A stretch of DNA of 64,000 bases. Origin: Lingula anatina (taxonomy: Eukaryota; Animalia; Brachiopoda). The notes beneath the pieces were generated by a model that was not told where the DNA came from, ran no database searches, and saw only the letters and a list, made by a program, of their open reading frames with translations. The stretch covers positions 24,056,001 to 24,120,000 of the forward strand of contig CM120642.1 of the NCBI GenBank assembly GCA_051362555.1, in the 5' to 3' direction. Each line of letters starts with the position of its first letter. Position 1 is the first letter of the stretch. Positions 3,301-62,444 of this stretch are shown one piece after another. The position numbers were made by a program, and so were the translations under genes.

Positions 3301-6300
3301 TTGATTTTAAACTTTTGTTTAGAATGGCGATAAACATACATGTATTTATTTACAAAAATATGGATCAAAACTGTTCGCAGACGGTAACTTACATTAAACC
3401 TGTGACTGAAACTCTCTTGCCACAGCATCATCGTTTTAGACCATGGTCCATGTAAATACGACACTAAATTCACATTTTAACTTAATACCACACAATTGCG
3501 TATGCCTACATATGTTTTAATCTTAAAACGTTTACAGATTTTGGCTCGTGGAAACATTGTGTCAACAAAGAGAGTCACCGTGGATGCCGCCAAGCCACTC
3601 CAAGTAGCTATTACCCCAGAGATGGCGCCTAAATCTAAGATGGTCATCTACTATGTGCGTAGCGACGGTGAAGTTGTTGCAGACAGTCTTAATTTCAACG
3701 TGAAGGGAGCTTTTAAAAACCAGGTATGCTCAAAACTTGACAAACGTTTTTTTTTTTTTGGGTTTTTTGCTGTGCGGAACAGCAAATTGGTCCAAACTAT
3801 TCCACGCGCAGTCAAATCAGTTAATTAGATAGTGATTCAAGAACAGCAAGATAGCCTACAGCTGTAACCGTCTTAAGACTGAGGTATAAATTGACTTCTT
3901 TCCATAATATTCAAAAACGTCAAGAAGGTGACGATCTTTATTTAAAAGGAGCAGTAGGCATTGTAACCTTACTTTTCTTACTGCTCTGAATAGGTAAGAA
4001 TAATTTTACTATATAAATATCATCGTCAATACTTGCCGCTTTTCTAGGTCTCCCTTCAATTTGACAAAACCAAGGCAGAACCCGGCCAAAAAGTGAGCGT
4101 GTCACTGTCTGCCGATCCTGGATCGTTTGTAGGCCTCTTGGCTGTAGACCAAAGTGTGTTGCTGCTTAAATCTGGGAATGACATCACTCAAGAGGAGGTA
4201 TTTAATACATTTGATTTTTTATGGAAGTGTGGGCCTCTTTCTTAGTATTCAAAATTACGCTCATCAAACGGATAAATAATTAAAGCACAAACAATTATTG
4301 TTTTTTTACACGAGCCCCCCTTCAAATTATCCTGGATCCGCCCCTGGTACGCATATGTGTCTGGTTTTTGAGTGGCGAACATCTGTCCAGGTGTAAAATA
4401 ACCACATACAAGGGAGAATTTGAGAAAATTGGCTATTTGGTAAGCAAAGAACTATGTTTCAACTGAATCAAACAAAGACCATTCTACCATGCTTTTTTGT
4501 TAGGTATTGGGGGAATTGGATACATACGATACAAGGAAAGAGTCGTTTTATGGTTGGGGTGGACGTCCAGTCATTGGAAGAAAGAAGCGTTCGATTTGGT
4601 GGTATCCCATTCCGATAGGTGGCACTGATGCACATGACATGTTCCAGGTAAATAAAAGATTGTTATACGGTATATGCAGTGTATATGGTCAGATCTGAAA
4701 TCAGAACGGCATATGCATTATCTCAAGAACCCCTCGAACGTTATATAGTAGCGCTCCTTGATGTCATCTTTCATTTCTCTCAAGAAGCACTGATTGTTTT
4801 TCATGGACGTTAGTGTACAAGTAGACATCACCATTTTATCAGATTTTCAAAAAAGAAAAGCAATATTGTGCTTCGTTTCTGTAATCGTTTATCAATATTT
4901 TTTTCAGAACACCGGCGTCGTTGTTTTATCCGATACAATGCTTTACCAGCATAAAGAACCAATGATATGTAAGTAGCAAGCGCATTAATATAGCCTACTG
5001 TGTGCAAAACAAATGTACCCACATTCATGCCTTACAGGTGTAGGTTTAAGTTATGAAATAAAATGAGCGGGGCGCTTAAAGAGGAAGCGCTAATATTAAA
5101 AAAGATGTGTTTATTGATTTATTATCGCCCCAGTATAAACACCTGAGAAAAAAACATGCACGAATGCATGCTTATTTTGTCAACATTACTTATATTACTC
5201 GATTATTAATTATTATTAGATGAATTAGAATAAGTAGAACGTTTATTTTTCTGTCCGTCTTTTTTAGTTTTAATGCTCTGTTATATACCCAAGCTAAAAT
5301 GAATGCATTGGTATAATTACATTATTTTCAGGATATAAGGATGCTGAGTAAGAAATGTGTTTTCATACATAAAATTTCAGTTATAAAGCAACATCTCGTT
5401 TAAGATTTAAGTCATACAAATGTTACAGCGGTATAGCCGAAAAATAGAGGAAATATCAGCAGTTTTTTTTAAATGTTTTAGCATCTAATTAATATTTAGG
5501 GTAAGATATTTAAATGGGTAATAATTCTTCGTATGAGATATATATTTTACAATAAAAAAATTTGTGAACGACTCGTAGAAATATGATATATTCTGTTTTG
5601 CCACTAAAAAGGCAGTTTTAGCTTTTATTCTGATATCTGAGCTTGTCTTTAAACCACGTGACCCCCATTGATGGCTATACTCTGTTATAATCTCCTAAGA
5701 GATTATAACTAAAAAAATTGGAAAAAAAGACTAACTTTGAATGTAAAAATGGATTCAATAAACATTGGTAAGTATGGGAAAATTGCTGTTTACTCCAGGA
5801 AAATTCATTCTTTTGGCCAAAACGAAGAGTTCTTATCACTTTAAGGATGTATCCTAAGTCAAGAATAAGCTTGATAAGATAAAGACATTTTAGTGAATCA
5901 TGTAATATCTATTCCAGTGTAGGGTAACTAATTTTCAGTTCTTTTTAGATACTTGGTAATAATAGTATAATGCATTGATTACTTGTTTCTATCTCTGTCG
6001 TAACTGGGTTGGGAATTGAACGTTGTGCGTTATTAAAGAGATTTCTGTAGAAACCCAATAAAACGTTGAAGCAAAGAGATAGACATATCTTTAGGTGAAG
6101 GAACCCATTGGCATTCAATATACGGATCTGAGACTTTACTAGAATCGGAAACGGATAACATGCTGGTACTTCATACATGTAGCAAATCCGCCATGACGAA
6201 CCCCCGCAAAAGTGGATAGAGTGCAAAATGTTTTCCTGGATATTTAACCGTTCAGGATACATAATATAATATGTGTTGGTGAATGTACAACAACAGTATG

Positions 6301-8010
6301 ATTTTGATATGAATGTTTAGATCCTCCCTTGCCAATGGCGGGTGTAATGCCGAATGTCATTCCAAAGCCAAATCCCAATCCAAATCCTGGCGGCACCACC
6401 GGGACACAGCCACTGCAAGAGGTGGGGAGAATACGTAATGTCTTCCCGGAGACATGGCTTTGGCAGAATGCCAGTATCGGGTAAATTTGAAGACTGTGTC
6501 GGGTGGATAAAAAGACTCTCTACATGTAATTATTAGCTTTCAACAGAGCTTTTTGCAGTACTGCTACTGGATACTGTATTTGACAAGTACACCATATCAG
6601 CATTGTGGGGTGCAGTATAAAAATGATAAAAATATTTTGGAATTTTCAGTCTGGATGACAGTATGTCACACCAGAAAAATAGCGCAATATTTTGCACAGC
6701 TTTTGTCTGATTGCTTGAAGAACATTGCCCAATGCCCTGTCAAAATTCTCACCAGGTTTATCTATTAAACAGAGAAAGTGTTCAGTAGTCGGCGTTTTAC
6801 TAGAGCCAATCACGATGAATGTGGGGGAATAACGCCCAAGGCTGTTCAAACATACGTAAATGTACATTGTACATTGTAAGAACAGGCCCTATGGGCAATA
6901 CAGATGTGCTACAGAAAACCAGCCAATTTGATCAAACTTAATTGAGCGCCAGTCTAAAATTAGAGATGTTTTTTATCCACCTGGTTTATAATAAGCGACC
7001 AGTTTGCTGCGGATATATAGTGCGCTGCTTCTCACTACAGATCCACCATTGCCTGGATTCGGCGGCGGCGGCGGCTGGGCAGGGGGTATTATGCCGGCTG
7101 TGGCAATCAACGGAGCGGCGGGCGCGGGTGGGCCCTTGCCGGTTCCCGCTGTCACCTCCGCTCCCGTGCCTGGGAAACAGCCACTTCAAGAAGTAGAGAA
7201 AATACGTAACGTTTTCCCAGAAACGTGGCTGTGGCAGAATGCAAGCGTTGGGTAATTCAAGTCATCAGAAAAGGGGCAGTGCGTGGAGATGTTATTGGTT
7301 TTGTGATGATGTGGCGTTTTTTAGAGAGCGTGTTTTTGTGGGATTGGCTAAAGCAAGAAACCGATGATTAGTTCTACAAATAATTAATGAATAATTCACC
7401 TTCTACGCGAAAATGCTAGATAGTTGTCGGGTTTCAGATTACAAATTCGCTGATTATAAATGTTTGATTTTGTGTTGGTGGATGTGATAGACGGTAAGTA
7501 GCAGTAGTTCATAGAAACTGTGGGGCAAATGGAAAAATGTGAGTTTGACTCGAATGACGCAAAATGACTCGTGAAACCTATCTGGAAGGTCACCTATCTG
7601 GAAGGTCACCTATCTCGAAGGTCACCTATCTGGAAGGCTACAACGGAAATATAGCTCGACCATAATATTTCTTTTTCAAAGTTACTTTAGTACTATAAAA
7701 TGAAACACCCGATAGTTATAAGACAGCATATATGCACAAAATCTTACTTAAGCAACATGACCCCATTTTAGATCGATTATTGAAAGAACGCTTTATGTAA
7801 ATGTAAGAGAGAAACACACAACATGTGTTAAATGGTAGGATTTTATATGACTTTTTATCGATGAATGAAAAGATTGAAAACATGCTTAAGGACATCTCTT
7901 TACTTCTTAAAGATACAGGTAAATCCCATGTCTTCTTCTCCTAAACATATAGATAAGACTGTATAATAATAATATTAATAATAATAATAATAATAATGAT
8001 TATAATAATA

Positions 8011-8047
<37 letters not shown>

Positions 8048-9756
8048 TTATCTATAGTCTAAAATCCATATAAAATGTTCAGTAGGCTTGACATAGGTAA
8101 AATGAACAAAATAAGATTACCAAAGAAAATGAAAAGGTAGTTAAAATAATAAGATATGAACTAAAGATGTGAACTAAAATGTGATGTAATTGATGAACAG
8201 TTAGGATTTTAAGGTATTAAAAATAAATTGTTCAATTTAAAAGATAACAGTCAGTCAAATCAGTTATAAAACTTTTTGAAAATATAAAGACAATCCGAAT
8301 GAATGGGTTTTATATTGTTACCATCAACACGTGACCCCCTGATTTTTTTTTTGCAAGGTCCGTATAGAATGGAACTGTAGTTGACTATGAAAACGATAGG
8401 CCCTGGTGTTGGGAGCGCACTACTTATTTGATGTATTGTTTTGTTTTCACCATTATCATATTTTTTGAACTTGATTTAAAGAGGGGTAAACATTTAAAGC
8501 GCAGGCTTGTCTTCCACATGACCGTCTCTTACCAGTTGTTCAGCATACTGCGTTTGTTCCCTACTTAAACCTTTATGTGCTAATTGCTTAGCAAAGAGAC
8601 AGCAGGCACCATTTTATGATGGGCTTTGGTATGACCCGGCCGGGGAATGGACCCACAACCCTCTGCACTGGAGTCGAGTACTCTAGCATTTGAACCATTC
8701 GATCTAGTATAGTTAGAGTAACTGAATGTATATGTGTACAGTTTCTATTGTGAGAGGATCCTAGAGACGCCCCTTGATTTACATTATGATTTGGTAACGT
8801 GCTCGTTTTACGCGTCAGTTCATCTTGCCGCTATTGCGAAGAGAACGATGGCGGTATCGTAGGGAACCCAAAAACCATACCACGTATCCAGACCGCATTA
8901 AACGAAGAAATTGAAAATTAGTGCCTTTAAAAAGGGACCACAAAAGCGTGGAAATAGATCTGAATTCACCTTCTTCTGAATAGATATTGTGTTTCGCTAT
9001 ATTTTCAATATTATATTTACAATTATCAATGCGTGACTTCATCTCCAGACCCTGAAGTAAGACCTATGGTAGATATGCTCGGTGGTGGCGGGCTCCCAGT
9101 GCCGGCTATAGCAAAAGAAACCATAGGTCGTCCAAGTGGTTCATCCACTGGAACATCCGGTCAACAGACACTTCAGGAAGTGGACAGAATACGTAATGTT
9201 TTCCCGGAGACTTGGCTGTGGCAGAATACGAGTCTAGGGTAATACATGTATAAACTGATAGGGATAGTTAGCATATGCTTACAGCGTAGAGTAATGGTGT
9301 TGATTTCTTTTTGGCGTATGTGAGTAGGGCAAATTCCAAGCATTCACCAAAACTAAATGGAGTAGTTACATAACCAGCTAGAGCATAAGGTAAGCGATAC
9401 ATATTAGAGAGCGTCAAGTGCGATTTTCAACCCTCTATGGTCTGTAGTAAGGGGTCGTTAGTATATGTTTACATTGCGGAGTAAAGGTCTTGATTCCTTT
9501 TTGGCGTATGTGAGTAGGGCATATTCCAAGTATGTGCCAAAACTAAATGGAGTAGGTCCTTTACACCCGCAAGTGCATGAGGCAAATGATGCATGTTAGG
9601 GAGCCACGAGCGCATTTTCCAACCTAGTCCTCTGTGGTCAATAGGCCAAGATCCGCTACAAAATGTCAGTTTTGCCAGTACCAGATTTCCAGAAACAATT
9701 GGCTGTGGTTGGAATGAACATGTCTTTGATTCCAATTCTCCTTGCAGTATATAAAT

Positions 9757-9803
<47 letters not shown>

Positions 9804-12800
9804 AAAAAGGTTTCCTGGCATTAATCGCAACGCAGTTTGTTTTGTTTACGTGTTTGTTTATCATTTATGTGAGAAAACAGACCCGCCAAACCTACAATAT
9901 CGTGTGGTGAAGAATGCTCTAAAAGCATACCCAAATCACCCTTGAAAATGTTGCTTTGGCGTTTACATAACAATATACTGGTATGTATGATAATGTGCTG
10001 TTTTTGATGTATATATTTTATTTTTTTCATCATGAGTTGTACAGGTACTTTGTCAGTAAGTTTCTTTGAGATTATGTAATGTAGTTGTAAGGGATAGACC
10101 TGTTTCAAACCACCGCCAAACAACTGGGGCAGCCTAGTGCGTGGTTTATGTAACGGTTTAATATGCATACATGGCTTCGGGCATATTATATCGATGAAAG
10201 CGCTGGATATATGCCTTTCAGAATGTATGGAGTTCTTGTAGACTGTTTTCAAATCCAGCACTTCACTGACAGGATTTATTTCAATTTCAATTCACTGTAA
10301 CTTTTAACGGAAAATTGGCCTACATTGATTATTTCGTAAACAGGGCGTTATCCGTATAGACCTCCGTACCCCAGGTACAGACCAAGAGGTCCCTCTAACG
10401 GGTCTGATGGAAGAGGAAGGGGTCCTGCGGGCCCTGCTGGTCCTGCCGGCCCAAGGCCGCCAATGACGCCAAGCACACCGAAGGAGAACCCAAAAGACTT
10501 GGCAGAAGTAGAAAAAATACGAAAAGTATTCCCAGAATCATGGCTGTGGAACAATGTGACAGTTGGGTAGGACAAGGAACAAACATGTCCCATTCACCCC
10601 TAATTATCATATATTTTTAATTTTCAAATTATATGGTGCAATGCAATGGTGCATGCTATCTATCTATCCTTATATATATCACAGTGTTCATACCCAGGTA
10701 GCATATCATTAACCTCGCTAACACTCCCCATAAACTAACTTGATAGTACGTGTGAGGGTTTTACTGGTCTGTAATCTCGATGTTACCACGTTCATATTTA
10801 TGCTCATTTAAATAGACATGTAGTGAAGCAGTGGACACAAAACCAGGTACATGTAATTTATATATGTATTTATGGAACTAACAGTACTGCGGTCTACACT
10901 TTCGTTCATGCACAGATGTACAAAAGATGTTGGGTATATTGTAGTCGACATACATGTATAATTAACCAGTGATCAATTTCAGGGGGTCTTCGGGACGTAT
11001 CATACCGTTAATGATAGCTTACACATGGTGGACAACTTAAACAAACATTGTCCAATGTTTGTCATTATTTGGCACCTTGGTAGACGCATGCTCTGTCACC
11101 ATGCATATTGTCTAACAAAACCATATATTGGTTATTTATACATTTATGAAGTGAGGAGGTACAGGCCACGACCAGGAGGCTGGGGACGACGATTTCGCTT
11201 CCGCGTGAGAATGGCGCGTCCATCAATCCGACTAAAAGTAAATTCAGTCGCCAAGCCAGATGTTGCAACCACCAGGCCTAAAAACGAAGGAGCTAATCCA
11301 GAACCTCGCATCAGAAGGATCTTCCCGGAGACATGGTTGTGGAGCAACGCGACAACAGGGTAAAGAGTGGGAAAATGGAAGAACTTGCACCTGTATATAT
11401 TAGTATGCATGACATTAAGGATACCCAATACTTTGGAGAAGACTTCTAGCCTACTGTGTACAAGCATGCCTTTGTTTTTTCATGAAGCATGTGGTCAGAG
11501 ATTCTTGATCTGTTGTTTTCAGTTACTCCGACCTTCATTTGTCCTTGGTTATGAAGTGCATGGTTTCTTTTTTATGTCATTTGTCCTTGGTCATGAAATG
11601 CATGGTTTCTTTTCTATGTCAGTCTATGTAATGTTGCATGTGGCAATGTCGTTCTGAAAAATGTTTTTGACGGCGCATGTCCTAAGAAAAAACCAAATAA
11701 CACGTGCACCAAGACCTCTTACTTTGAAGCTATTTCTTTATGATTCATGATACCGATTAACATTGGGGTAAACACTTGCAGTTTCGAAGCTAACGTTTTG
11801 TGTTTAGCTAATTTAATTAGTCTTTTATTTATAATATATTCTACAAGAAAAGAAACGTTACGTCACACGTACGTCACTGCCATAAATTACGGTTAGAATT
11901 AAATGGTGTGGATATCGTCTTCAGAAATATGCTTAATTTTGGGATCATCTTGGGCTTCAGCTGAGACTCATGCTCAGTATTTCTGTCTTTCGGCAAGACC
12001 CAGGAGCTAAATCCATTATTAAGTATTTTGAAGGGGGTAGGTTGATGGTCCAACTTTCCGTATAAGACTACGTAACAATTCAAGCAATAATAAGAAAAAG
12101 CTTGTTTTGATGTCTAGGGGGAAGAGTGGCCTTTACAATAAGCCCTGTGGTGGATTTTTCGTCGGAGACTGATGGTGATTCTGATGCGGGAGATTCTGAT
12201 GATGGTGCAGTCGAGAAAAGTGATGGGGGTTTGACGGATCTTGGGGCGATCCGTTCGTTTTTCCCTGAAACGTGGCTTTGGTCCAATATATCTATTGGGT
12301 AGGCGAGATAAGAGAGTAACCTTCCTTTATAACACACGTTCGTATGCCAGTGGATCTTCACCTCTCTGTGAATGCCATACTGACGTTACCAAACTAACAA
12401 TTTTATTTTGGCGGCAAAATGGTGCAAATGAACTTATACTCAGCCGTTTGCTTTCAACTATCTTTAATATAATACCTATCTGTAAAAAGGCACCAGTTCA
12501 ACGCTTCATGAGGGGACCCGTGACAGACTAACATTTCATTCAGGGTCCGTGGAAGTTGAGTACTAGTTTTACTTCAAAGTCATTTGGATAAATCCCATTA
12601 TGGTTCCATATTTTGTGGTTAGCAGGCAGCCTTACCTTCTGGAGTTTTGGGAAACGGAAGTCGGTCGCGTTACTAACCTAAAGGCAACTCCATTGCGCAA
12701 ATACGAACAACTGCTCCTTCAAGGCTCCTACCCTAGGTTCTAGATTCCGGTATTGCCAGCTCGATCTTGATTTAACCCATATCAGCAATACCAGGCTCTA

Positions 12801-15800
12801 GCGAACACCGACAACGAGGGCGTCCTTCTTCAAAATTTTGCCTGGGGCGCTTCCATATTTGGAAGTCACAAGTTTAGTACGTCACAGCTGTGTCCCCCTG
12901 GAGCTCCCATATTTGGAAGTCATGTCTCGTACGTCACAGCTCTGTGCCGCCTGGAGCTGCCTTTCCCGCCTTTCGCTGACGTTATCTCGTGCAGACGAGA
13001 CAAGAAGTAAAGTGGCTGACGTGGAGTTTGAGTTTTAGACGAAGAAAATCTTGCAGTCGAAGGCTGATTTTGGTCTTGCCATTGCGCAGCCCTTATGTAT
13101 AGTGGTATCGGGCATACAGTGTAGCTGTCAAACTTGGCACACGGCAAGCACGTGTATTGCAGGAGCAAATGTTTTTTGATAAGCAAATAATACAAAAAAA
13201 AAAAAAAACATTGGATATGTCTTTTTCTTTTAGAAACATTATTTATTTTTCACTTTACATCTTAAAAACAGTAAATAAAATAAAATAAAGCAGAATTAAA
13301 TCTGTTTTACGTTTCATATGGCTCTAATGACATTCAACTGCAGATTCACTGCGGAGAAGTTCTTTTTGATTGACGGTAATCGTACACTGTCGCTGTTCTT
13401 CAGAGCTCACTTTTGAAGCCCGATTCACAGTGACTCTGACACTCAGGGCAAAGGCTCTATATCGTCTCCTCTTTTTATGGTGTTCGTTTGGGATATATAT
13501 TGAGATGCTTTGTTGTGTCCAGACACAATTAATTGAATCCAAATGCACCTGACGTCTCTATTGTTATAAAAATCCAACCATCTACATGTAGTAAATTTTG
13601 TGAAACAGAAAGTATTGTATTTGGCTTATTAATGTGGTTTCAAATAAGATATTCATTGGAATAATACTGTTATGGTCTTTGTATTTAAACTTTGAAGACT
13701 GGCCCACCCCAATGCCAGGGACAATGCCAATGCCAACGCCAATGTGGCTTACTTCAAGAGTCCGCCCCATGCCTTCAATTGGTGGTGTCGTCCCAACGCG
13801 TGCATCATCATCATCATCGACTTCTGCAGGCGGAAAGTTAACCGAAGTGAAAACAATAAGAAAGTTCTTTCCAGAAACGTGGTTGTGGGCAAATACTACA
13901 ACGCGGTAGGCAAAACTGTTTGAAAAGTGACTTTTTTAGTGCACAGCTTCTCTTTATCGGCATTAACGACAGATGCCCACATCGAGAGAAGATTTTTACC
14001 CATCGCCTTTACTACCTGTGAATATAGTATTGGCTCATTCCCTAGAATCAGCGCCTTACTTTGGGGGTCCCTAGAAAACGCTTTTACCGTGGCAAGAATG
14101 ACTTATATTGTTTAATACGCTAGTCTGATATGAATAATTGGACGACATGATCGACAAGAAACAGATCCATAATGCACAAGACGTCAGTTATAAACTGGAG
14201 GACAATTTCAATGAAGCAAAAGGGTTGTATGTAACAGGAACAGTTATAGAACAGTGTGTATGCCTTATATCACGTTGGTTTCTTTTCTCCGACTTTGCTT
14301 TTAGAAGAGTGGCTTTTTTTCTCCCGCTTCATCTCAATGTGGTGTCTCGATCTGCTTTTATATCACGCTTTTATGCTTTTAGGTTTTGCTGCTACTATAT
14401 GTACGTATGCTTTGAATGCATACATGTATTCTTAATTGTCTATCGATAAATGTACATGTACGTGGATGGCATTCAATCCTTTAATTTTAAGGTTTCTCAG
14501 CACTTGTTTACTATATTTCATGTATATTCCATTCCGATAGATTAATTTACTGGTACATGTCTTTACGCGTGGCCGATTACCAAATTGCATTTTTATTTCG
14601 TTTGAGCCTCTCTCAAAGTAAATTAACTTGTGTTTCTCACGAGAATATTTCTGGTGCCTTTTTATGTTTTCCAAATAGATTGTACGCCACAATCTTAAAC
14701 ATTAACAATATTATCTTAATACCCTCTAGTACAACTGGTACGGCTGCCCTCAGTACCATCGTGCCGGACACTATTACGTCATGGGTGGCCAGTGCGTTTG
14801 CTGTCCACTCATCATCTGGGCTTGGAGTGGCTGCAGATACAGCAAAGGTATGACTGCAACGTTTTTTTTTTATAGAATAAAGTCGAGTTTTCGCAGCTTA
14901 CATTTTAAGCCCTTTTTGGTAATGTGTAGATTTAAGTGCTATGTAACGTGTTTTTTTTACAATAATCGCTTTTTTGTTATATGTCGTGTTGTACTAGTAT
15001 ATTGCGTTGCATTTTTATCTACTGCAGATGCATTGCATGGGTTTTCCTATAACACGATTAATATGCTATTGGCTTAATTAAAAAATAACGTCCAATTATT
15101 ATTTTGACCATTTGCAGTTAGAGGCATTCCGCCCGTTCTTTGTTTCTCTGAACTTGCCATATTCAGTAGTACGTGGAGAAGAGCTCATCTTGCAAGCGGT
15201 GGTTTTTAACTACATGGACCAAGATATGGACGTAAGTTGCCAGATAAACTCAAGGACTATTTCAGTTTATAAACGTCATCCGAATCCGCGGTGATACATT
15301 AATGTTCGTGTCCGTTTGTATGTCTGTGTACGTGTATTCGCATGCGGTGTGAGTTTTTAACGAAAATACAAGAGCTGAAGTTGACAAAAGCATTTTAGAG
15401 TAAAAAAAAAAATGAAAAAGAGAAGAAAAAATAAGGATTTGAATTTATCATACACTAGAATACATGTATGTAGACAAATACAATTTGCAATGGATTTTTC
15501 TACTTTGTTAGGTTCTTGTGACACTGGAAAAGTCTAACGAATTCAAGAATATTGTGCTGGACAAAATGGGTAAAGCTACAACAGTGTCTGAGACACAGAC
15601 GGAGACAGTCATGGTAAGTGAATAGTAGCCATCTACACATGTTTACGCCAGGAATAAGAACTGCTTTTACCAACATTCATATTTGTAACAGGGCTGATAC
15701 AATGTACTACAGTCTGTTACATTATCACAGATTTTCGATAAATAGGTCCATGTCATTGGCAGATTTAGCGGGTGTCAGGGGGGTCCTGACCCCCCCCCTC

Positions 15801-18800
15801 GATTTCTGAAAAAAATCACACTAATTAGAATTGTGACTAGCTGAATTATAGTTCTAAACCGTTACCCAATGGCACTGTTCACCCTCTAAAATAACATAAT
15901 TTTGGGACCCGGTGAACCCCACGCCCGGGGGTGGGGGGGGGGGGGGGTTGGGGGGTGGAAAAATGAAGTTCTCGTAGTGAAGTATATTCTTTCACAATGC
16001 CGAAGGTTTTGCAATTTTTTTATGAGGATTCGGTTTTGCTGTGTTTCTTGTAAAATATTTGGCTGTCATTATAATTTCATCTTGCTTATAATGGATGTTA
16101 CTGAATTGAAGATTTTATTAATGGCTCAAATACTACAAAAACATCAAACAACAAAAATAATTACCTGCGCCTAATGTCTTAAAGAATTTATTTTTCAATA
16201 TTTAAAAACCAGGCGACACTGTGAAAATAGTCTTCAGTTATGTATTGAGTTATTAAAAAAAATCATTTTACACATTTGGGGACATTTAGCAGCTTTTTTA
16301 CATAAGTAAAAAATAACTAGGTTAATCGGAGAATGTGACTTGGTAATGCAAATGCCAGTCACGAAGGTTTTAAAATTTAGTCCCTTTTTGGTGTGAGAAC
16401 ATATTAATAAATTTTTTTTGATGATTTGAGTTGCTAGACTGAAATTTGATAAAGTTCCACCAGGACACACAATTCTTCCTCTTGCTTACTTTTAATAAGA
16501 ATATTAATCAAAAATGGATATATATATTTAGAATCGGTGTTAACAGGAACAGGTTTAACGCTATACTGTATGTATGCAAAGTCCCCTGTGGGACTTACTT
16601 AGTTTTTTTTGAAAATCATGAAATGAAAAGACAACTTTTTCGAAACCCCCTAAGATCAGAATGATTAAAAATGTATTGCAGTGGATACAGTGGTTCGTCA
16701 TTACTATTAAAATGATTAAGGGTTAAGCTTTCATTTTTACAACACGTTCCGGTATTATGTTGTAGTTTAATTCTCCACGATGTGCAAGATTGGAGGTGAT
16801 ACCTTGTAAATGGGCGTTTGTTCGTAATCCCAATCATTAAGTCTTATTATATTTTAGGTCCAAGCTGGGAAAGGATCGTCCGTTTATTTCCCCATAATTC
16901 CATCTGCTCTGGGAAAGATCGACATTCTCGTAAAGGCACAGTCACCAGTTGCAGCTGATGGTGTGCAGAGACAGTTGCTTGTTGAGGTATACCTGAGCCT
17001 GTAGGCAGTGTCCATTCTTTATTACCACGAACATAATGTTTATTGTTTTTTAACTTATAAGTACGATGCCCAGGCAAAATATGCTCCCAGGTTACGATAA
17101 CCTACGTGTAGCTTACACAATGGCTGCCATTTTTGTTTCGTAATCGTGTGCACTTATGTTTAAAATGTACTGGGCAACACGAAATTGCTTCAAATTGTAG
17201 ATCTGTCCCTGTCTCGACTCTTACTCTTTTGCGCAAACACACACACACACACACACTTCAAAGCACCAAACAGAAGCGCACTTTTTGACAACTCTCACGA
17301 CATCAGTCGACGTCACTTTTTTAAGCACAACTCTCATCTAGTTCTTCTCTAACACATTTTTCAAGGCCGAGGGTGTTCCTCAAGAGTACAACCAGGCTGC
17401 GATGATCGATTTAACCAGCAAGTCAACGTTTAGCAAGACGTTCCAAATTGAGCTTCCATCCAACCTCGTGCAAGGGACTACTCAGATACAGGCATCTGTC
17501 ATAGGTAAGAAAAGACGAAAACTGTCATAAAAGACGAACATGGCGTGCTAGATTCAGGATGGTAAAATAAATTATCCAACAAGTGAATCTTTATCCCCCT
17601 GCCCAAAACTGTTAAAATGGCGATTAATACAAAACCCTATGACAAAGTGCATCCAGGTAGAGTACACGTACAATAAACCGATACAGTAAAATGTCAAGTA
17701 TTTGGAGACTATAAATGAAAAAAATATCATTCATTTGCAGGTGATTTAATGGGACCAGCCATGGCGGACATCGACAGCTTGTTGAAGATGCCATACGGCT
17801 GCGGTGAACAGAATATGCTCCACTTTGCTCCCGATGTTTTCATTTCAAAATATCTTACTGAAACAAACCAGTTTGTCGGTGAGATAGAGAGCAAAGCCAT
17901 TTCATACATGGAGAAAGGTATGTGCCTTTCAGTCTCGGTAAAGTATATTATATTTTGTTGAATCATTATTGCATGAAACCACAATTTATGTCTTAACCCC
18001 TCCTTTACTAAGAGCAATCAATAATAAGTTCTATCCACTTGAATGTTTTAAATATTTAAATCACCGTAGGTCTCTAAAATGACAGTCTATTACAGAATTG
18101 TTGTTTATCTATGGTGACTCTTGTAAATTATTCTATAATCCATAAATTTATCTTTTTCTTTTATGCACATATATTATGTTGTGGATCATAAAGGTAACTT
18201 TTCGTTGTGAGTAATGCAATGTTCTTCTTCAGGCTACCAGAAGGAACTTACTTACCAACACTATGATGGTTCTTTTAGTGCGTTTGGGAACAGAGATTCT
18301 TCTGGCAGCATGTGGTAAGCTGAATTATGTGGGTGCGCGTGTGTGTTACTGTACCTGTGCAAGCGCACGTATGTGTGCGTGTTTGAGTGCGCCTGAATAA
18401 GTACATAATCCTTCGTGTGTTTATGTGTTCACTTTGATTCGTGTATATAACCCAAGTGATTCCCTGGTTCTGGAGAGCCGTAACCAGTGAAGGCTTCATA
18501 TTATATAAGACGTGTTTTCTAAAACTTAGGTGGCTGGTTCTCGACATTAGTGTTTTATTTAAACGGTATTGAAACTAACAGTCAGTTAAGAACAGATGTC
18601 CCTTCATGTTAGGTTTTCCATATTTTTATCACTTGACTAAACATCTATTAATGTACAGGTAGACATTATTGGTAAAACTCGGTTGACAATATTTCAGGCT
18701 GACCGCATTTGTTGTAAAATCTTTCCACCAAGCACGTGGCCTCATCTTTATCGATGACGAGCTTCTTACCAAAGCTATCAACTGGATGATTAGAAAGCAG

Positions 18801-19592
18801 AATATAGATGGGTCCTTCCCAGAACCTGGCCGTGTACTCCATAAGGCAATGCAGGTAAACAAATTGAGATAATTACAGTTAATCAGATAGATGCCAAATT
18901 GGTGAATGTGCATTTCTCGTTACAATCACTAAAAATAAGGTATATCCATACCTCATGTTTGCTATAGTATTTTGAATTTCAATGGAAGGAAATGTCGAGA
19001 TAAACTGGCAAACAGGATCCAGCTTTGTAAGCAAATGTATTCTAATTGTAACTTTAACTGTGTAACCTGGCACAGTTAAAAAGATATTTACACCGTACAG
19101 TCTGATATCTACGTTCTTAAATGATTCTCTAATGTATGCCAGATTCACTTCCGTTTTCTAGCAAATATTTGCTATTGTTTACGATGACTTGTGTCTAAGT
19201 AGGCCTAAGTAGGCTACATTTGGTGTTCTAAAGGTTTTTTTTTTTTTTTGAAGAATTACTTTTATGTTGATTACTGTATTAGGTGCATACAATATTTTGA
19301 ACAACATATAAAACTATATGATTCATTTATGTTTTAGGGTGGTTCATCGTCAGGCGTGTCTCTGACTGCATATGTTGTGATCGCTCTTCTGGAAAATAAG
19401 GACCTGGTTAGTAATATTTATTATTTAATCCTATTGTTATTCAGGGTTATTTTGTAGTATGTAAACGGCATCAATCTCTACTTACCAAATAAATTGAAAA
19501 CCAAACCCATACAACAAAGAATGAAAACAGCTAAATCTAAGTGTACGAATTACATTTTAGAAAATTCTCTAAGATGACTATACATTAAACAG

Positions 19593-19635
<43 letters not shown>

Positions 19636-22600
19636 TGGATAATCTTGTTGGTAAGTCGAAAGCCCATGTGATAGCAAATAAATAAATAAATAAAAATAAT
19701 AAACAGAATGATAAATAGATGGTCTTATTTTATATCGATATTTCAGCCTAATTCTCATGGAATCACCTCCGCCACTGCAAGCGCCGTAAGCTACCTTGAG
19801 AACCAAGTGACGTCCATGTCGGACCCTTACGGTCTGTCCATTGTCACCTATGCCCTGCAGCTGGCCAACAGTAAGAAGGCGGACGACGCTTTCAAGAAAC
19901 TAGATGCCTTGGCAACACTGGAAGGCACGTTCTCGTCAATAAACCTGCTTTAGTGTAACAACCCTTTCAGTTGTCTGTTAGCATAAGACAACAAATTATT
20001 TTGTGAAGAGTATAATGGTTGCATTATTACCTCAGAAGCCACGGTCACTAAACAGCTCCTCTTCAGAAAGCAACATTTCTGTAATGCTGTTTTTGTCAAC
20101 CGTTGTAAATTGTGAAATTATCTAATATCAACCGGGTGCAATCGATAAGTAAGAATATATTTAACCGGTTGCACTCTTGGTGTCTTTCCCATTTTCCAAT
20201 CGAAACGTGATGTGCAATTAAATTGATCCTACCTAGAACTTTGTAGAAAATACTAAATACGGTGATAACTAATAAATATATATATGATATAAATGGTATT
20301 TCTCTCCTTTTCAAAGGTGGCTCCAAATACTGGAAGCAGCCCGAAGTCGCCAAGCCGGCGGGGCGCTATAGGAACACCTACGAGAGACAGCCCAAAGCTA
20401 ACAATGTGGAGATGAGTGCGTACGCTCTCCTTATCTATGCCGAGAGGAAGGACCTAGCAGGAGGATTGCCTGTGCTGAAATGGCTGATCTCCCAGCGCAA
20501 TGCGCACGGAGGGTTTGCCTCAACTCAGGTAACTTATTCTTCCACCAACGTATTGTACACGAGGGTTCGCGTCAATGCTAGCAAGTTTCCCAAAACTTAA
20601 TTTATTACACTCGATTGATATTTATTATTGCCCCACAGGACACGGTGATGGCGATGCAGGCGCTGTCCATGTTTGCTGCTAAGATCTACACTGGGTCGGG
20701 TCAGAACATGCAAGTGACCGTGGCCAGCGAGGGCTCTACCAGAACACTGAGCGTTGACAAGACGAATGCCATCATCCTACAAACCTTACCGGTAATTCAA
20801 AATTTTTAAATACTTTAACAATTGGTGGTGATAAACATACTGAGTACTCTTTCCATTTAGTCAAGTTCAAGTTTGCTTATTACACTGCATGATATTTTAG
20901 ATAAAAGCGGTACAATTGCATTTTAATACTGCGTATTCTGTAATTAGATTTCTCTCTCTCCCTCCCTTTTTCTCTCTCTCCCCCCCCCTCTCTCTCTCTC
21001 TCTCATAGCTAAGAGTCTATATATTATTGTTTCTTTCATAGCTCCCAAGCAGTACCAAACAGGTGGCCGTATCGGCAACAGGAAGCGGAATGGCTCTTTT
21101 CCAGGTAAGATGACTTATTGTACCAGATAATTATTAACACCAATCTATGATGTTATGTAAGTATTAGACGCCCCGTTGAAATAATGTTTTTTGGCTATTC
21201 CTTTTCAAACAAATATTAGGAATTATATTTGACAGACAGACCAGTCCAACATTAAATAAATTGGTTTAAATGGCAGCAAATGGAATAAGTTTTATTTCAA
21301 ATCCATTTTCGAGGCTAAATTACCGATAAACTTAGTCCACGAGGTAATGGAAAATACAACATGTTCATTTGATGCAATCAATAATCATTTTGGCATCGAT
21401 TGATTTATCGTATTGTTAGTCTAGCAGTAGAATGAATAGGCGTGCATATGCAATGGCATCGGTGTAAATGACAAAGAACATATCTGATAACCTTGCAGTA
21501 CTATAAAAATCAACTCTACGTTAGTATAATTACAAAAGACTTACTTTCACGCTTTTCTCTATAGGTGTCCGTGTCGTATAACATAGATAAGGTGGAGCAA
21601 GAGCCGTCCTTTGCTGTGGAAGTCTCCCTGTTGAAGGAGAGCCAGAATAGCCTTATGGTCAAAGTGTGTTCGAGGTACGTACCTTTCATATAAAACCATA
21701 ATAATCGCCACCACGATTCAAGTTCAGAGTCTCAGACCAACTAAATGTAGTATTTTGAAGTATCGTGATTTGTTAGGCCAGAATCAGCACAAAATCAGTT
21801 TAAGAATTGTTGTACTTGGATAGCTGCATTTCTGAGATTCTTAGCTAGGGATGAATTTAAGGAACAGAACTTAGGATATTTGACAGCTGATTGTGTTGAA
21901 ATCTCAATAACACTGAGTGTCTGTTTTCGCAGGTGGCTGGAGAACAGTCCAGCAAGTGGCATGGCGGTGAAAGAGATTGGAATACCTAGTGGATTTGAGG
22001 CTGATCTGGAGAGCATTTCACAGCTTTCTACACTGAAGAAGACGGAGAATGCCTTCAGGAAGATAGTGGTTTATCTTGACGAGGTTCGAATGACGCCAAT
22101 AAAACGCAGCTTTCAATTACTGTAATTGTGCAATAGAACCGTATATTGCAAAATAATTTCCTGAAGAGTTTCAGCAATTTCCCCTTTAGAATGTAACATA
22201 ACCTATGCAAAACCTTTGAGAAAAATAACGATCTATAAATGCGTTTTCTGGCTCTAAATATCTGAAATTCACCGATATTCATACCCAGAATGACAGAAAA
22301 ATCAAAGTCTGTTTGGGTGCAGATAAAATATAGCAGTATGTAAACTTGGCTTTTTCAATGAGTTTCTTTAACTTTCACATTTTGAGTTTTCATCCCGTGT
22401 TGTTTCCAGATTAGCGCCCAGTCAACTTGCATCACCTTCAATGCACAGCGTGTTGCTCAGGTGGCCAAAGCCCAGCCGGTAGCTGTTAGGGTTTACGATT
22501 ACTATTCCCCAGGTATTCCAATATTTCCTGCTTACAAAAATATTACCTGAAACTGCATGATGTTTTGATTGTCAACTATATTTTCGATTGGCCGACACAT

Positions 22601-25317: not shown

Positions 25318-25519
25318 GGGTGCTTTCCCAGAGATTTAGATCGATCTAACTCCCTGGGGGTTCAGGCTAAATTGCAGTCAGCCGAGCGGACACCATAGTT
25401 AATTACCCCCTTACAGCTTTTAGTAGGCGGGACAGACGCTTAAGCCGGCCAAGCTGACAGTTATCTAGTGAGACTCCCCACAGGGATAGATCGATCTAAA
25501 AATCTATGGAAATGGGGTG
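25318..25519 (+). mobile_element. PIF/Harbinger-type MITE, copy 1
   Basis: Imperfect TIRs ttcccagagatttagatcgatc / gatcgatctaaaaatctatggaaa flanked by TAA...TAA; closely related copies at 29475 and 62209. Confidence 0.75.
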
Positions 25520-27685: not shown

Positions 27686-30600
27686 TTACAAGTAAGTCAT
27701 GCCTTTCTCACATATGTATCCGTGGTACTCGCAATAAGAAGTGACGTTACACATGACGTCATGAAAGTCGTAATCCGGTACGTATAATCCAACACAAGAT
27801 GCAGCCTCTCCTACTGGTACTTGATTTGGCTCACCATCGGCAAAGCCCCAGTACTCGCTGTTTATCGTGGCACCGGTGGCAGTCCACACCCACTCGCCGT
27901 TCACTAATTTACCACTAGTCCACCAGTTTCGGCCCTTCATGCTGCTTGACGTCCAATAGTCCCCACAGCAAGAGCCGGAAAAAACCTGATTTTCTAGGTG
28001 AAGCAAATGTAAAATATTACATTGCGGTTACATGTTAAAATTGCATAGTCAAGGACGTGTTTGTGTGTGTGCGTGCGTGCGTATGTGAGAGAGAAAGAGA
28101 GAGAGAGAGAACGAGAGAGACAGACCCAGAAAAACTTTGTATATTTCATAAATAAAAAATTATGTCCTAGCTTCGGACCCATTATCATTTTAAGCAAACA
28201 TCACTGACGCAAGTGAACCTGATGCTCGTTCCAAAATAGAGCTCGTCTAAATGTACCCCTCAAAGCAACGTGTTCTTGCAACAAAAAGATGGAGCTAAGA
28301 GCGGACGTCTCGATGTTGGACACACTCACCCTGCATTTCCCGGATCCTTGTCTTGAGATACTCGTGCTCTGTTCTCGTTTCTATGGCGACCAAGTCAGCC
28401 TGGAAATAACTGCATAGTTGTCTGGCTTTCTCCCATCCTAGCTGTATTGACGGCGTATTTATGAAATAGCACCTGTTGTCATGTAGATGGAAAGGCTGGC
28501 TGCACATACCTAAAAAAACAACAAAAAAGTATCTGTATCATCCGTGTGTAATGAATGAGACTAACGTAAGGGTGAGTGGGACACTTTCCCTCCTTTAGTC
28601 CCCCACCTGATATGCATAAAAGCGTTTAGAAAAGCTCTTTCCTTCAATATGTGATGTGGCCAAACAATTTTCACGGTGCATTAAGATAAACAGTAAAAGA
28701 ATATCCACAATAAATTCGGCAACCGAGAGGTGCGGCAACATATAGATAATTGCGGTAGTATTTATGCCGAAACATCAAAATGAATAGCCCCGCCGTTCGA
28801 GCCTTTTAATCAGATTCAGATCAGATTAACCAATCAAAGCAACGGAAAGGGGGTCACGTCACCTTCCCACCAGGCCATGCCATGTAAACAAAGCAGCATG
28901 ATCGGCTGTAATGAAGAGTCTGAGGAGGGAGACGCGAAATCTTCGCCAAATTCTCATCTTTCGTGTTGCATGCACATAGAAGAAGGTAGCTAATTAAGAG
29001 ACTCTAGATACCATCACACGTGTTCGCTGGGAAACTTTTAGAGTCGCAGCGAAACAATGGCTGAAATTTGGCAGCAGAGAAGCCGCTGCTGTTCAGTGGA
29101 TCCGTACAGTACGGATTTAGATAAGGATTCGACGATTTGGAAGCCAAACCACGATGTCACTTTTCTTGCTACAGAAAGCTAATTAACAAGAAGGGGCTAT
29201 CTCAGGCGGCAAAGAAGTATGAGAAAGCTGAGAAACAAGGCAGTCCTGCTGAAGAAGGTATGTCAACATATTGTAATTTGTTTTTAAGTCAGCCCCGATC
29301 GTGTGATGTTTACATTGTAAGTGGCTGATGTTACATAACAATATGTGACTGATAAAAGTGATATGAAAGAAAGAAAATAAGAAAATGATAAAAAAGTTTA
29401 TTAGTGTTATTATTATTTTATTTGTAAATACTTAAAGGTTTTAAGATATGAAACAACTCCTCTCTGTTGAATCAGACCCCATTTCCAGAGATTAGATAGA
29501 TCTACTTTAGGGGTTCACGCTAAACAGCTGTCAGTGGGGCGGACACGAAAGTTAAATACCCCCTTACAGCTTGTAGTAGGCGGGACGGACATTTAAGCCG
29601 GATTATCTGACAGTAATCTAGTTAGACTCCCCGCGGGGACAGATCAATCTAAAAGCTCTGGGAATACAGCCTAAGCTAGCTGTATGTTCTTGCCATGATT
29701 AACATCTCATTATTAGTTCATCCATATTTATCATAATTAGCATTGCATTTACACAAAATAATGTAAGGCTTCACACAACAAGATATACAAACAAATGTTA
29801 TGGTGGGATTTTATGAGACAGAGGCTTAAGTATCATGGTAGAATCTTTTATGTTATTTGTGGAGTGTTCCTCCCCCCCAATACATTGCTGCACATGTGCA
29901 ACCATTAGTGAATATAAATATGTATAGGCTAAGCCCAACTTCAATGAGAATGTATTTTAGGGAATATTTACTGTATCTTGTGAGCCAGAAAAAGTAGGAT
30001 AGCTTTTCACAGAACAAGCTGCAATGTGATTAATTTAATTAGGACTGTTAGGAATAATCCTTGTAACTTTCCCTTATGAATAGAATCAGTAAAGGTATAC
30101 ATAAATAGTATCAATAAAGAAATACGTTGACAAACAGTATCAATTAAGGAATAATGATAATGAGTAGGGTGACTGGTAGATATAGTTCAGTTTAAAGAGA
30201 AGAGTCACTTTTATTCAAGGCATCTGATATTAATCTGGGCAGCAGAATGCTAGTGGGCTCCCTATTAATTATTAGATCTTTAAGCTTGATTAATTTGTCT
30301 TAGTTGCAACAAATATTAAACAGTGGGTCTCATTTGCCTATAGTTTGTTACAGCTTAGTTCCTCATAAAAGGAACATGCTGAGCCACTAATACATTGAAT
30401 CCTATACCTACCCTATGCCCTTTGAATCATGAGGATATATGTAATTATAGTTGTCAATATCACTTGGTGTCAATCATGTGATAAACTCACATGCGACTGT
30501 CTTATCTTATTTCATTATTATTCATTTATTTTATAGTTAAATCATAGTGATTGTATATACAATTGCACTTGCAACAATCAAGGATTTGCGGTCTGCTCTG

Positions 30601-55960: not shown

Positions 55961-57187
55961 TCAAGCACTCAGACACTCAACATTTTCTGGCCAATCACAA
56001 ATTCCAGTTCCATCGCCGCCATCTTTAAACCACAGGCCTTCTGGGCACGACATCGAAGTGGGAAGCTGGAATCCAGAGCCGCATTCATAAAACTTGCTGC
56101 AGTCATCTGGATCGAGCACTAGGTCTCCTTTTTTCAATTCAGAGCATCTGTTCTCTTTGAAAAAAAACATCACAGATATGAGAACATTAATCATGGAACA
56201 AAAAAATTAATAGGCTACATGTATATGTACAATAGGCGTGATGAATCAAGATATATTAGATGATACCAGCCTTTTCCCCATGTTTTCAACATTAGAATGG
56301 CAGCTGCGTGTCGTTTTTCTTAAATCAAAATTTAAAACCAAAGATTAACGCTGCTACGCATGCGTGGTAACGCGTGTCATTTGCACTACGAAAACTTTGC
56401 CAATTAAATGCCTTAGCCTTAGGAGAAAAAAAAGAGGAAAGAAAGAAAGAAAAATACGGCACATATGTTTCTTCTCATACACAAAATATGATACATCCAA
56501 AATTAATATCAAAGCTGTGAGCAGTAAAAGCTGAACTTTGGGGAAAACGCAGTACATGTATATAGTGCGACCAACTTTTCCTTTAGTTTACGAGGACCCA
56601 TTGTCAGCGTTCAAATTTTCTGGACGGGTTTGAACTGCAGCTACAGAAACATACGTGGTGATGTTGCCCTCCATTCTGCTCGGATGTGTCACACACGGTA
56701 GACAGCTGTACATCATGTAACCACTTTCTTTCAATGAATTTGTTCCACTCCCGTAACTTTAAACTTGTTTCAAATTAAAAAATTAATAATAGTGACGACT
56801 TAGGCTAAGGTATCAATGGATTTGAGTGAGTAGGCCTACTTTTTTTTTTTTTTGAAACAGGCCATACTTTTAAGCAAAAGTGTTATTATCCATCTAGACA
56901 CCCCCCCCCCCCCCCCCCCACGTTGGGCGATGTTTCGGCGTCTTTAGACAGTCGGTGCTGCCCAAGCTTATTGCGGACACATTCGACCTACCTGCGTAGC
57001 AACCAATCAGTGTGCACCCTCCGCCACAGCGACAAGTATTGCACGTATCCTGTCGGAATACCTTCCCTCCATTTTGACAAAACTTATTCACCTCCTGTTG
57101 GCCACGAAGCAGTGGTGGTTTCTTTACCTCGGCAGTCACAAAAACTGCGGCGCACAGGAAAACGCAAACGCTTACTTTGAAATTCAT
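55961..57187 (-). CDS. Secreted pacifastin-like inhibitor + CBM14 chitin-binding domain protein (PAC-4, putative P1 Leu)
   Basis: Exon 57187-56992: MNFKVSVCVFLCAAVFVTA signal, then C-x11-CNTCRCGGGCTLIGC. Exon 56154-55961: ENRCSELKKGDLVLDPDDCSKFYECGSGFQLPTSMSCPEGLWFKDGGDGTGICDWPENVECLSA*. Phase-1 GT/AG intron. Confidence 0.88.
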
Positions 57188-59322
57188 GTTAACAACAAAT
57201 GTTGATGAAGTGTACCCGTCGATTTTCAATGCTTTAAATACCATGATTATTTGCGATAGAATCAAATGTTGAAATTGAAAATTTAATTTTTCGCATTTCA
57301 TCAAAGGCAGTATATGAGCTGAAAATGGACACAGAATTAGAGGGGTAATTACTGCAGCATTTTTAAGTGGCCATTTGAAAACTCCCATTTAAAGCCCGGT
57401 TTTTAAGTGATAGATAATGGCTCCACGTATTGCAAATCAAATGTCCCAACAATACTAGTAGCTTGAAGAAAAGCCCACACTATCAATGTACTTCTTAAAA
57501 ACATGAGAACGCGATGCTATTTTTTTTTCAAGATTGCAAGATTGAAATACATATAGAACCTAAGGTTTGATTAGTTGAAATATACAGTATAGTGCCTATT
57601 ATAGCAGCGTAGAATGAACATAATTATATGATTAATTCCATTCATTTCCTAATTATCTCAACGTGCCGAAAGGACAGTCCAATTTGTCTTACACTATTAC
57701 TCTCGATAGCTTTAATCCTTATGGTTTATGAAGGCTATAAATTTCAAAACTGGTCAATTTTCTCCTGCTTTCAACTTACGAGTAAATACACATTTTTATA
57801 ACTTGAAGTAAAAAAGTCTGTCGCTGAGATATTTGGGAGAGTAAAAATTGTAGGGGCATATGCCCACCATACTTATATACTTGTCACTGCCGAGATTGTG
57901 TTTGCGGTTGAGATTCAAATTGGTTTGAGCGAAACAGCTAACGCAACCCTTGTCACGTCATATTTTGAAATAGAAGTCAAAACAAACTCAAATGGCGAAG
58001 GCTGTCATGTAACGGAATGAAGAATATGTGATGCAACTACCTCATTTTAGTCAGAGTGGAAGGTTTGCCGACTGGAAAACAAAACGTATGCTTCCTATTG
58101 CAACAAACGTCTCTTGTAATACAATTCATATCTGGATGCGTTAATTGGACAATAAGTAGTGTACAGCACTAATATTTCAGCAATTTTTTCTCACCACAAC
58201 AAGGTAGTACTAAACGCTTAACCGTTGCAGTAAGTCGTATCCTACATCTTGTTTATGCTACTAGTGCTCTTATCCCTCGCTGAGAGGTTGTACACTGTAC
58301 TGCAAACTACTTAACAGTTTCAACAAAAGATTGTTTTTTTTCATCCCCTTATGCTTGTCGTGTCATTTGATGTGCGTGTGCATGGCATAACAATTACATC
58401 TTAAAGCTGCACTGAGATGTGCCTATCTTTGTCGCCTCCTTTCCATGAACTAAACATGATATTGACCCGTATGCCACGGTTTTAATATTGGAAATAGTAT
58501 TAAATATCATGCCATTATTCCAACATTCGCTGCGTATTTTATTACTTTCTTAACAGTCGATTTTTCTGTCTCTTCTCCTCCCTTTCTGTCTCGACTACTC
58601 GGGGAGCAAGCTTTGATTGTTGGTTTAGATGAGTATCGAGTACCCTGGAAGTTTTATTAATACCTATATCTCTCACAATGATTGAAAAACACACACACAC
58701 ATATATATAAAGTGTTAACATTTTCCTCTCGGTCAGTCTCGCTGGCGGCACGTGTCTTATAGTACATTAACAGATGCCCCCCCCCCCCCCCAATACCCTA
58801 TCCTGCGCATTTTTCTCAGCCTGCGTCCCTGATAATAACAGTTTTAACTTTAAATTAAGATTGTCTTTCTAAATACAGCATTCTATCAAACGGATTGACT
58901 CTGTAAGGAGCGCTATAACCCCATGTTGCGTTGCAATATTTCAAGTGTGCATTTAGCGAAATAGGACGCTAAGTCAATATACGTTTATCCTTTAAAAATC
59001 ATGAGTCACAAAACGGAACAATGCCGTAAAGGAAAGAAACATTTATTTTGCAAACTCACCATCGACTGTTCCTACATGTAGAATCAGAGCATGCACACGT
59101 ACTGTTTATTCAGCTTAAGCTGTTGCTACAGCAAGTATGTTTGCCTTAAAAATAAAATAAAATTAATCTGAATAGATTAAATTGATCTAAAATTAATTAG
59201 ATAAAATTAATCTGAATAGGAATAGATAATTAATAACAATAGATGAGGACACCACGATAAGGAACTGTTGAGGCAGCAGCCCATTCGAAAACTGTGGACG
59301 CTGTATTTTTCACTCGGTTATT

Positions 59323-62208: not shown

Positions 62209-62433
62209 GGGTGTATTCCCAGAGATTTAGATCGATCCAGGGATTAAAATTTAGATCGACCTAACTATCTGAGGGCTCAAGCTAAATTGCAGTCAACCGA
62301 GCGCTCACCATAGTTAATTACCCCCTTACAGCTTTCAGTAGGCGGGACAGACGCTTAAGCCGGCTAAGCTGACAGTAATCTAGTGAGACTCCCCACAGGG
62401 ACAGATCGATCTAAAATCTATGGAAATGGGGTC
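62209..62433 (+). mobile_element. PIF/Harbinger-type MITE, copy 3
   Basis: TTA|gggtgtattcccagagatttagatcgatc...gatcgatctaaaatctatggaaatggggtc|TTA; 3-bp TSD. Confidence 0.8.
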
Positions 62434-62444
62434 TTAGAGAAGAT

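Follow-up and report, generated by a model that had tools for sequence, protein, structure and literature searches.

The DNA described here is a stretch of 64,000 nucleotides of the brachiopod Lingula anatina (assembly GCA_051362555.1, contig CM120642.1, positions 24,056,001 to 24,120,000), referred to as the window. Its left part contains a portion of a gene whose product is a thioester-containing protein belonging to the iTEP/CD109 branch, including an array of seven tandem alternative exons (V1 to V7) that are the subject of this report. The gene (723–23340) and all of its features discussed below are on the forward strand; it was assigned from an exon model, Pfam matches of single exons, and a tree. 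The model includes 28 exons, one of them an alternative exon, and codes for about 1217 amino acids; it starts after the N-terminal domains, which are encoded before 723 by further 5' exons, and requires one predicted GC-AG intron (19925–20316). Pfam searches with single exons returned A2M_BRD, A2M, TED_complement, and A2M_recep in the expected order, with 10 of the 14 exon pieces matching. The thioester motif GCGEQ is at 17797–17811, identified in the sequence and by the TED_complement match, and the catalytic histidine of the thioester domain (18840–18842) was located by its alignment column, in which BgTEP2 of the snail Biomphalaria glabrata, CfTEP of the scallop Chlamys (Azumapecten) farreri, and CD109 also have His, whereas the mammalian A2M rows have Asn.

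The array is preceded by a constitutive exon (4504–4647) whose translation includes an RKKR furin-type site (4579–4590), with junction reads on both sides in all four RNA runs mapped there, and by the last constitutive exon before the array (4908–4968), which codes for the end of the linker, ends in phase 1, and has a 3' end that is recovered as loose read ends before V5 and V6. The first constitutive exon after the array (14730–14847) starts in phase 2, as supported by frame, RNA junctions, and Pfam. Between this phase-1 donor and phase-2 acceptor lie the seven exons, all of them (7 of 7) bounded by AG and GT and 3n+1 in length, such that two alternative exons, or none, would shift the frame, and we therefore infer that each mRNA would carry a single one. 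A crude search for docking-site pairings between the flanking introns and 400 nt around each exon, run without a shuffle control, gave exact matches of 10–14 nt only and no element common to all exons.

Each alternative exon codes for a variable part of 30–51 amino acids followed by a conserved 24 amino acids ending in R..FPE[TS]W.W, and an nhmmer search with the conserved end identifies exactly seven significant copies; a candidate decayed eighth copy at about 6208–6245 has only a weak likeness to the conserved end (E=3.4) and is not claimed. In A2M the R..F motif is described as the alpha'NT plug, which on retracting sets off the change in conformation (PMC9352918), and because the conserved exon end carries this motif, the variable part is predicted by homology to be the bait segment. 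The baits vary in character. V1 (6321–6480, variable to 6409) has a neutral Pro/Asn-rich bait with a net charge of +1, its conserved part being the predicted alpha'NT plug and start of MG6; V2 (7041–7251, variable to 7180) has a neutral Gly/Ala/Pro bait (net +1); and V3 (9049–9238, variable to 9167) a mixed neutral one (net 0). V4 (10344–10566) has a basic bait of Pro and Arg (net +8) that contains a Gly-Pro-X run (10421–10456), V5 (11152–11359) is Arg-rich (net +13), V6 (12118–12298) is acidic (net -8), and V7 (13698–13905) is a Pro/Met/Thr/Ser bait (net +3). These translations agree with the compositions given in an earlier sequence-only reading of the locus, including 11 Arg in 26 residues of V5.

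The closest homologues among 447 fetched proteins are oyster 'CD109-like' proteins with at most 51% identity, and CD109 is the best solved-structure relative of the closest of them (E 4e-261). A FastTree phylogeny of 50 proteins and 1154 columns, rooted on A2M and built without any C3 row, places the Lingula protein within the iTEP/CD109 group (support 1.0) and apart from A2M; it adjoins a mollusc clade with BgTEP2 and CfTEP and is weakly grouped with a bryozoan and a partial brachiopod sequence (0.897), the exact sister not being settled by the tree. Taken alone, this placement would point to a non-molluscan lophotrochozoan as the probable host. The modelled protein has neither an anaphylatoxin nor a C345C domain, in agreement with this branch. 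It ends about 20 residues past a four-Cys tail, like the mollusc proteins, and the predicted tail, whose last exon is taken from the model, has no vertebrate-type CD109 glycosylphosphatidylinositol (GPI)/hydrophobic C-terminus; the fish CD109, amphioxus, and Trichoplax rows have a hydrophobic C-terminal end, whereas the Lingula tail stops without one. With a short Cys tail and no GPI-type end, the protein is likely secreted.

Six raw-read RNA runs with the same species label were mapped to two intervals, 9830–15600 (runs X1, X4, X7, and X9) and 4040–7900 (X4, X5, X6, and X9), with joints listed at three or more reads; V3 is outside both intervals. In the first, V4 is joined to the downstream exon by 8, 2, and 5 reads in X4, X7, and X9, respectively, and V5 by 21 and 49 reads in X7 and X9; loose ends matching the 3' end of the upstream exon are present before V5 (14 reads in X7, 24 in X9) and before V6 (10 reads in X4). 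V7 has a depth of about 2.4 in X4 with no joint among those listed, X1 has zero reads on the exons of the interval, and no two alternative exons are connected by any of the 8 listed joints. In the second interval constitutive joints are seen in four of four runs, and V1 and V2 have RNA depths of about 1–2, with no joint to either among the 15 listed. Junction evidence is available for three of the six exons within the mapped intervals (V4, V5, and V6), and the leading exon differs by sample, being V4 in X4 and V5 in X7 and X9. Since X7 and X9 are genetically divergent, this isoform switch may be an effect of tissue, condition, or population. In constitutive exons, about 10% of the synonymous positions differ between the X7/X9 animals and the assembly, as in a divergent population or cryptic species. 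Intronic interspersed repeats at 5500–5845 and 12729–13400 draw many RNA reads from elsewhere, and one of them dominates the 4040–7900 mapping.

Composition among the seven baits is strongly heterogeneous (chi2 183, compared with 102±13 under residue shuffling; 0 of 20,000). After repeats of 1–3 residues are collapsed, chi2 is 131 compared with 102 (p about 0.025; 487 of 20,000), and the collapsed test gives p=0.585 without V6. The compositions of V1, V2, and V3 are indistinguishable (p=0.24), as are those of V4 and V5 (p=0.26); V1 to V3, with their last 71 nt 79–82% identical, are recent duplicates. Strong single-residue enrichments are confined to Arg in V5 (p=5.7e-6) and Asp in V6 (p=2.2e-8), and V3 has none at p<0.01. 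The proposal that every exon has a distinct chemistry is thus not sustained: because V1/V2/V3 and V4/V5 cannot be told apart and the repeat-collapsed signal disappears without V6, about three classes are supported, split chiefly by charge, namely a neutral class rich in Pro, Gly, Met, and small residues (V1, V2, V3, V7), a basic class (V4, V5), and an acidic class (V6). The baits contain no Cys (0 of 297 residues) and few Lys (9 of 297, compared with 79 of 1173 elsewhere in the protein), and in 21 other arrays Lys is similarly scarce (64 of 5134 bait residues, or 1.2%, compared with 5.7% elsewhere). Bait Lys residues of A2M can be self-conjugated by the thioester (PMC8267569), and the Lys-poor baits fit this behavior. 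In vertebrate A2M/PZP windows Lys is 3.1% in the bait and 6.5% elsewhere.

The comparison set of 21 other arrays has 142 baits, mostly from automated RefSeq models with at most 15 members per cluster, and arrays may be incomplete. Near-duplicates of more than 75% identity were dropped, and H. rufescens, Dreissena, Rhopilema, and duplicate oyster loci were left out; for Biomphalaria and Physella, incomplete arrays entered the heterogeneity, spread, ortholog-pair, and protease-rule tests, and complete ones the charge, Lys, and bait-match nulls. Of 20 arrays tested, that of Lingula shows the greatest heterogeneity (z 6.0, the next being 3.6), its net charge range of 21 (-8 in V6 to +13 in V5) compares with 12 for the widest of the other 21 arrays, and a Gly-Pro-X run like that of V4 is found in 0 of the 142 baits. 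Among molluscs, 54 reciprocal-best exon pairs, matched by the conserved end only, differ less in bait composition than do 806 other pairs (0.29 compared with 0.40) and correlate in bait charge (rho 0.56), the pairs coming from 20 species pairs and not being independent; the expectation that orthologous exons keep their composition is therefore borne out in molluscs. Abalone and oysters have bait motifs in common. An HGFL[MG]G-type motif is present in 10 of the 21 arrays and CxxC in 5 of 21, both common to gastropods and bivalves, and the Lingula gene has neither; bait motifs conserved this deeply may be target sites of particular proteases. V2 matches an alternative exon of Pecten maximus (score 91 compared with 55±7; 0 of 300 in both conservative nulls), V5 matches a Littorina saxatilis exon (0 and 9 of 300 in the two nulls), and matches of V3 and V7 to other baits are borderline.

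Similar exon arrangements have been described before. BgTEP2 has 12 tandem mutually exclusive exons in its variable region with a conserved C-terminal part (PMC7016707), and like the Lingula gene its exons vary in length and composition, the catalytic residue is His, the tail is Cys-rich, and it occupies a neighbouring tree branch; its isoform patterns are reported to be tissue-dependent (PMC7016707). It differs in that the 11 baits examined from the BgTEP2 cluster have net charges of -3 to +3 and no Gly-Pro-X run, compared with -8 to +13 in Lingula. CfTEP (P0212–P0217, P0337) has six mutually exclusive exons at the same position, and shares the branch and the His, but its six baits are neutral (-2 to -1) and have no trypsin site. 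In Drosophila Tep2, five alternative forms of exon 5 encode a hypervariable region proposed to widen the repertoire of inhibited proteases (PMC5489563), and the Tep2 bait is cut by a bacterial metalloprotease with thioester-dependent inhibition (PMC12846816); this is an insect lineage, likened to the Lingula gene by description and without isoforms being resolved in those accounts. Strain differences in snails concentrate in bait-exon regions (PMC9363628). The arrangement and the idea of a widened range are thus already published and the arrangement is ordinary; the Lingula gene stands out by the contrast in charge among its baits and by the collagen-like run of V4.

Our preferred interpretation, with a probability of roughly 55% and based on the array structure and its comparison with related genes, is that the seven exons are alternative versions of the bait that widen, with much overlap, the range of proteases able to trigger the thioester. 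Splicing would select one bait per protein; the 5' two thirds of the exon would form the exposed bait and the conserved 3' third the alpha'NT plug and the start of MG6; a protease cutting the bait would release the plug, whose retraction would expose the thioester to bind the protease or a nearby surface. The panel would consist of about three broad classes (neutral, basic, and acidic) and one collagen-like motif, rather than seven specialists. Human CD109 is a protease inhibitor with a trap function (PMC12927315), and CD109 and A2M resemble the Lingula protein in having a bait followed by the alpha'NT plug, with a trap mechanism (PMC12927315, PMC8267569, PMC9352918); both differ in having one broad bait and not an exon array, and CD109 in being GPI-anchored, compared with the short Cys tail of the Lingula protein. 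Bait sequence determines protease choice in engineered A2M (PMC8267569). The premise that the bait sets the thioester trigger accordingly holds for A2M, CD109, and Drosophila Tep2/Tep4 (PMC8267569, PMC12927315, PMC12846816), and does not apply simply to mosquito TEP1 (PMC3464232).

A number of observations weigh against the widened-range interpretation, beginning with the protease sites, which were scored with hand-written P1/P1' rules from general knowledge, the collagenase rule being checked against PMC3985423. Rules for chymotrypsin-, elastase-, prolyl-, and M4-type enzymes match all seven baits, and trypsin sites occur in 0 of 28 scallop baits, showing that arrays of this family need not cover every class. 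In favor of the interpretation, narrow rules do discriminate among the seven baits, the only ones to do so being trypsin-like, Asp/Glu-specific, glycyl, and collagenase. From V1 to V7 there are 0, 1, 1, 7, 10, 2, and 2 trypsin-type sites and 0, 0, 3, 2, 2, 10, and 0 Glu/Asp sites, and the collagenase motif is found in V4 only, where the Gly-Pro-X run contains three full sites matching the collagenase preference for G-P-X/G-P (PMC3985423); narrow-specificity enzymes would discriminate isoforms, and broad ones would not. The stricter scheme of the sequence-only reading would give every exon a protease class of its own, the seven together forming a complementary sensor panel; the expected sites are indeed nearly confined to V5, V6, and V4, and the array is the most heterogeneous of those tested, but V1 to V3 are indistinguishable, broad-specificity rules and Pro-rich sites extend to 7 of 7 baits, and the baits are not overdispersed. 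The mean compositional spread is 0.433, compared with 0.423±0.038 for random cross-array sets, and 0 of 19 arrays are overdispersed. We consider such a one-exon, one-class panel very unlikely.

Other unfavorable points are that the Lingula gene has no close ortholog among the fetched proteins, its nearest relative there being the one at 51% identity, that V1, V4, and V6 match no bait of the other 21 arrays beyond chance, and that one wild-type A2M bait already serves most proteases (PMC8267569). The substitution data are also unfavorable. In X7/X9 the V5 allele has at least 17 differing sites, with at least 10 nonsynonymous and at least 2 synonymous differences in the bait and a proportion of nonsynonymous differences (pN) of 0.10, while six constitutive exons have a pN of 0.01 and a corresponding synonymous value (pS) of 0.10 (from the best 40 rows, the counts being lower bounds). 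The V5 bait thus changes at a near-neutral rate, its pN equalling the constitutive pS, yet all charge-changing differences are towards more basic and the basic character is kept; relaxed and diversifying change are not distinguishable here. All 8 Asp of V6 are GAT, and there are pure-codon runs of 5 in the Gly of V2 and 4 in the Ser of V7; the V6 Asp, V2 poly-Gly, and V7 poly-Ser tracts look like products of slippage.

These features suit an explanation in which the baits mostly drift, the bait being only a flexible, cleavable, Lys- and Cys-poor tether, with duplicates diverging by slippage and relaxed substitution and the isoforms alike towards the relevant proteases. Repeat collapsing removes most of the heterogeneity signal, and all of it without V6, the compositional spread is that of random bait sets, and two X6 reads have an extra repeat unit in V1 (6361–6371), indicating a length polymorphism by slippage; A2M, moreover, stays functional with a Gly-Ser bait (PMC8267569). 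Set against drift are the motifs shared by abalone and oysters, the V2 match to a scallop exon, the five codons used for the 12 Arg of V5 and the Gly-Pro-Ala units of V4 that differ at third codon positions only, the intact state and open frames of all seven exons, and sample-specific exon use. Drift as the main explanation is unlikely in our view, and the assertion that the exons are not neutral linker drift gains some backing from the related arrays and from codon use in V4 and V5. The retention of composition and motifs in mollusc orthologous exons, the scallop match of V2, and the avoidance of Lys speak for selection, which likely targets a small number of motifs and the general character of the bait (its charge, a scarcity of Lys, and the lack of Cys), with drift and slippage in the remainder.

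Mosquito AgTEP1 is a further difficulty for the widened-range interpretation, since its cleavage does not at once activate the thioester (PMC3464232). Another proposal is that exon choice would set the activator of the protein and the place of activation, and not the pathogen protease that is trapped. Certain baits would be cleaved by host convertases or tissue proteases, or the charged ones (V4 and V5 being cationic and V6 anionic) would bind microbial surfaces or partner proteins, and the His-type thioester would serve as an opsonin, like that of mosquito TEP1. The His at the catalytic position is consistent with this, as are the 10–13 positive charges that far exceed the needs of a trypsin-like enzyme, one minimal R-X-X-R site in V5, and the switch of isoform use between samples. 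V4 and V5 also presumably resemble Pro/Arg-rich antimicrobial peptides. AgTEP1 is a pro-form cut by unknown proteases (PMC3464232), and isoforms specific to the gonad and to pathogens are reported for CfTEP (cited in PMC7016707). However, the CD109 rows also have His and human CD109 is a protease inhibitor (PMC12927315), and Drosophila Tep2/Tep4 inhibit a bacterial protease (PMC12846816); we regard host activation or binding as slightly less probable than drift.

Elsewhere in the window, a leftwards open reading frame at 56894–57388 has a weak pacifastin protease-inhibitor Pfam match (E 3.5e-4) that is below the curated cut-off. An exon-like open reading frame on the reverse strand (27686–28027), without a Pfam match at 0.01, presumably resembles the end of a C-type lectin domain, and broken frames on the forward strand at 62400–63255, also without a Pfam match, presumably resemble a Tc1/mariner transposase. 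Two copies of a short element are present at 25330–25505 and 29510–29654, the first with terminal inverted repeats.

A wider protease range by means of alternative bait exons has been proposed repeatedly for invertebrate thioester proteins, and no isoform-by-isoform test of such exons was found in the literature searched, which did not include the CfTEP fragmentation paper. Of the arrays examined, that of Lingula shows the greatest contrast between baits, and V4, V5, and V6 are therefore a convenient set for such a test. We tentatively suggest a more specific but rather unlikely possibility, in which the array would be a charge-polarized, regulated sensor that lets the animal alternate among an Arg-rich bait, an acidic one, and V4 as a collagen-mimicking decoy, thereby selecting different microbial protease classes including M9 collagenases. 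If this is true, the charge-polarized array would be the first clean case of alternative bait exons selecting different microbial protease classes.

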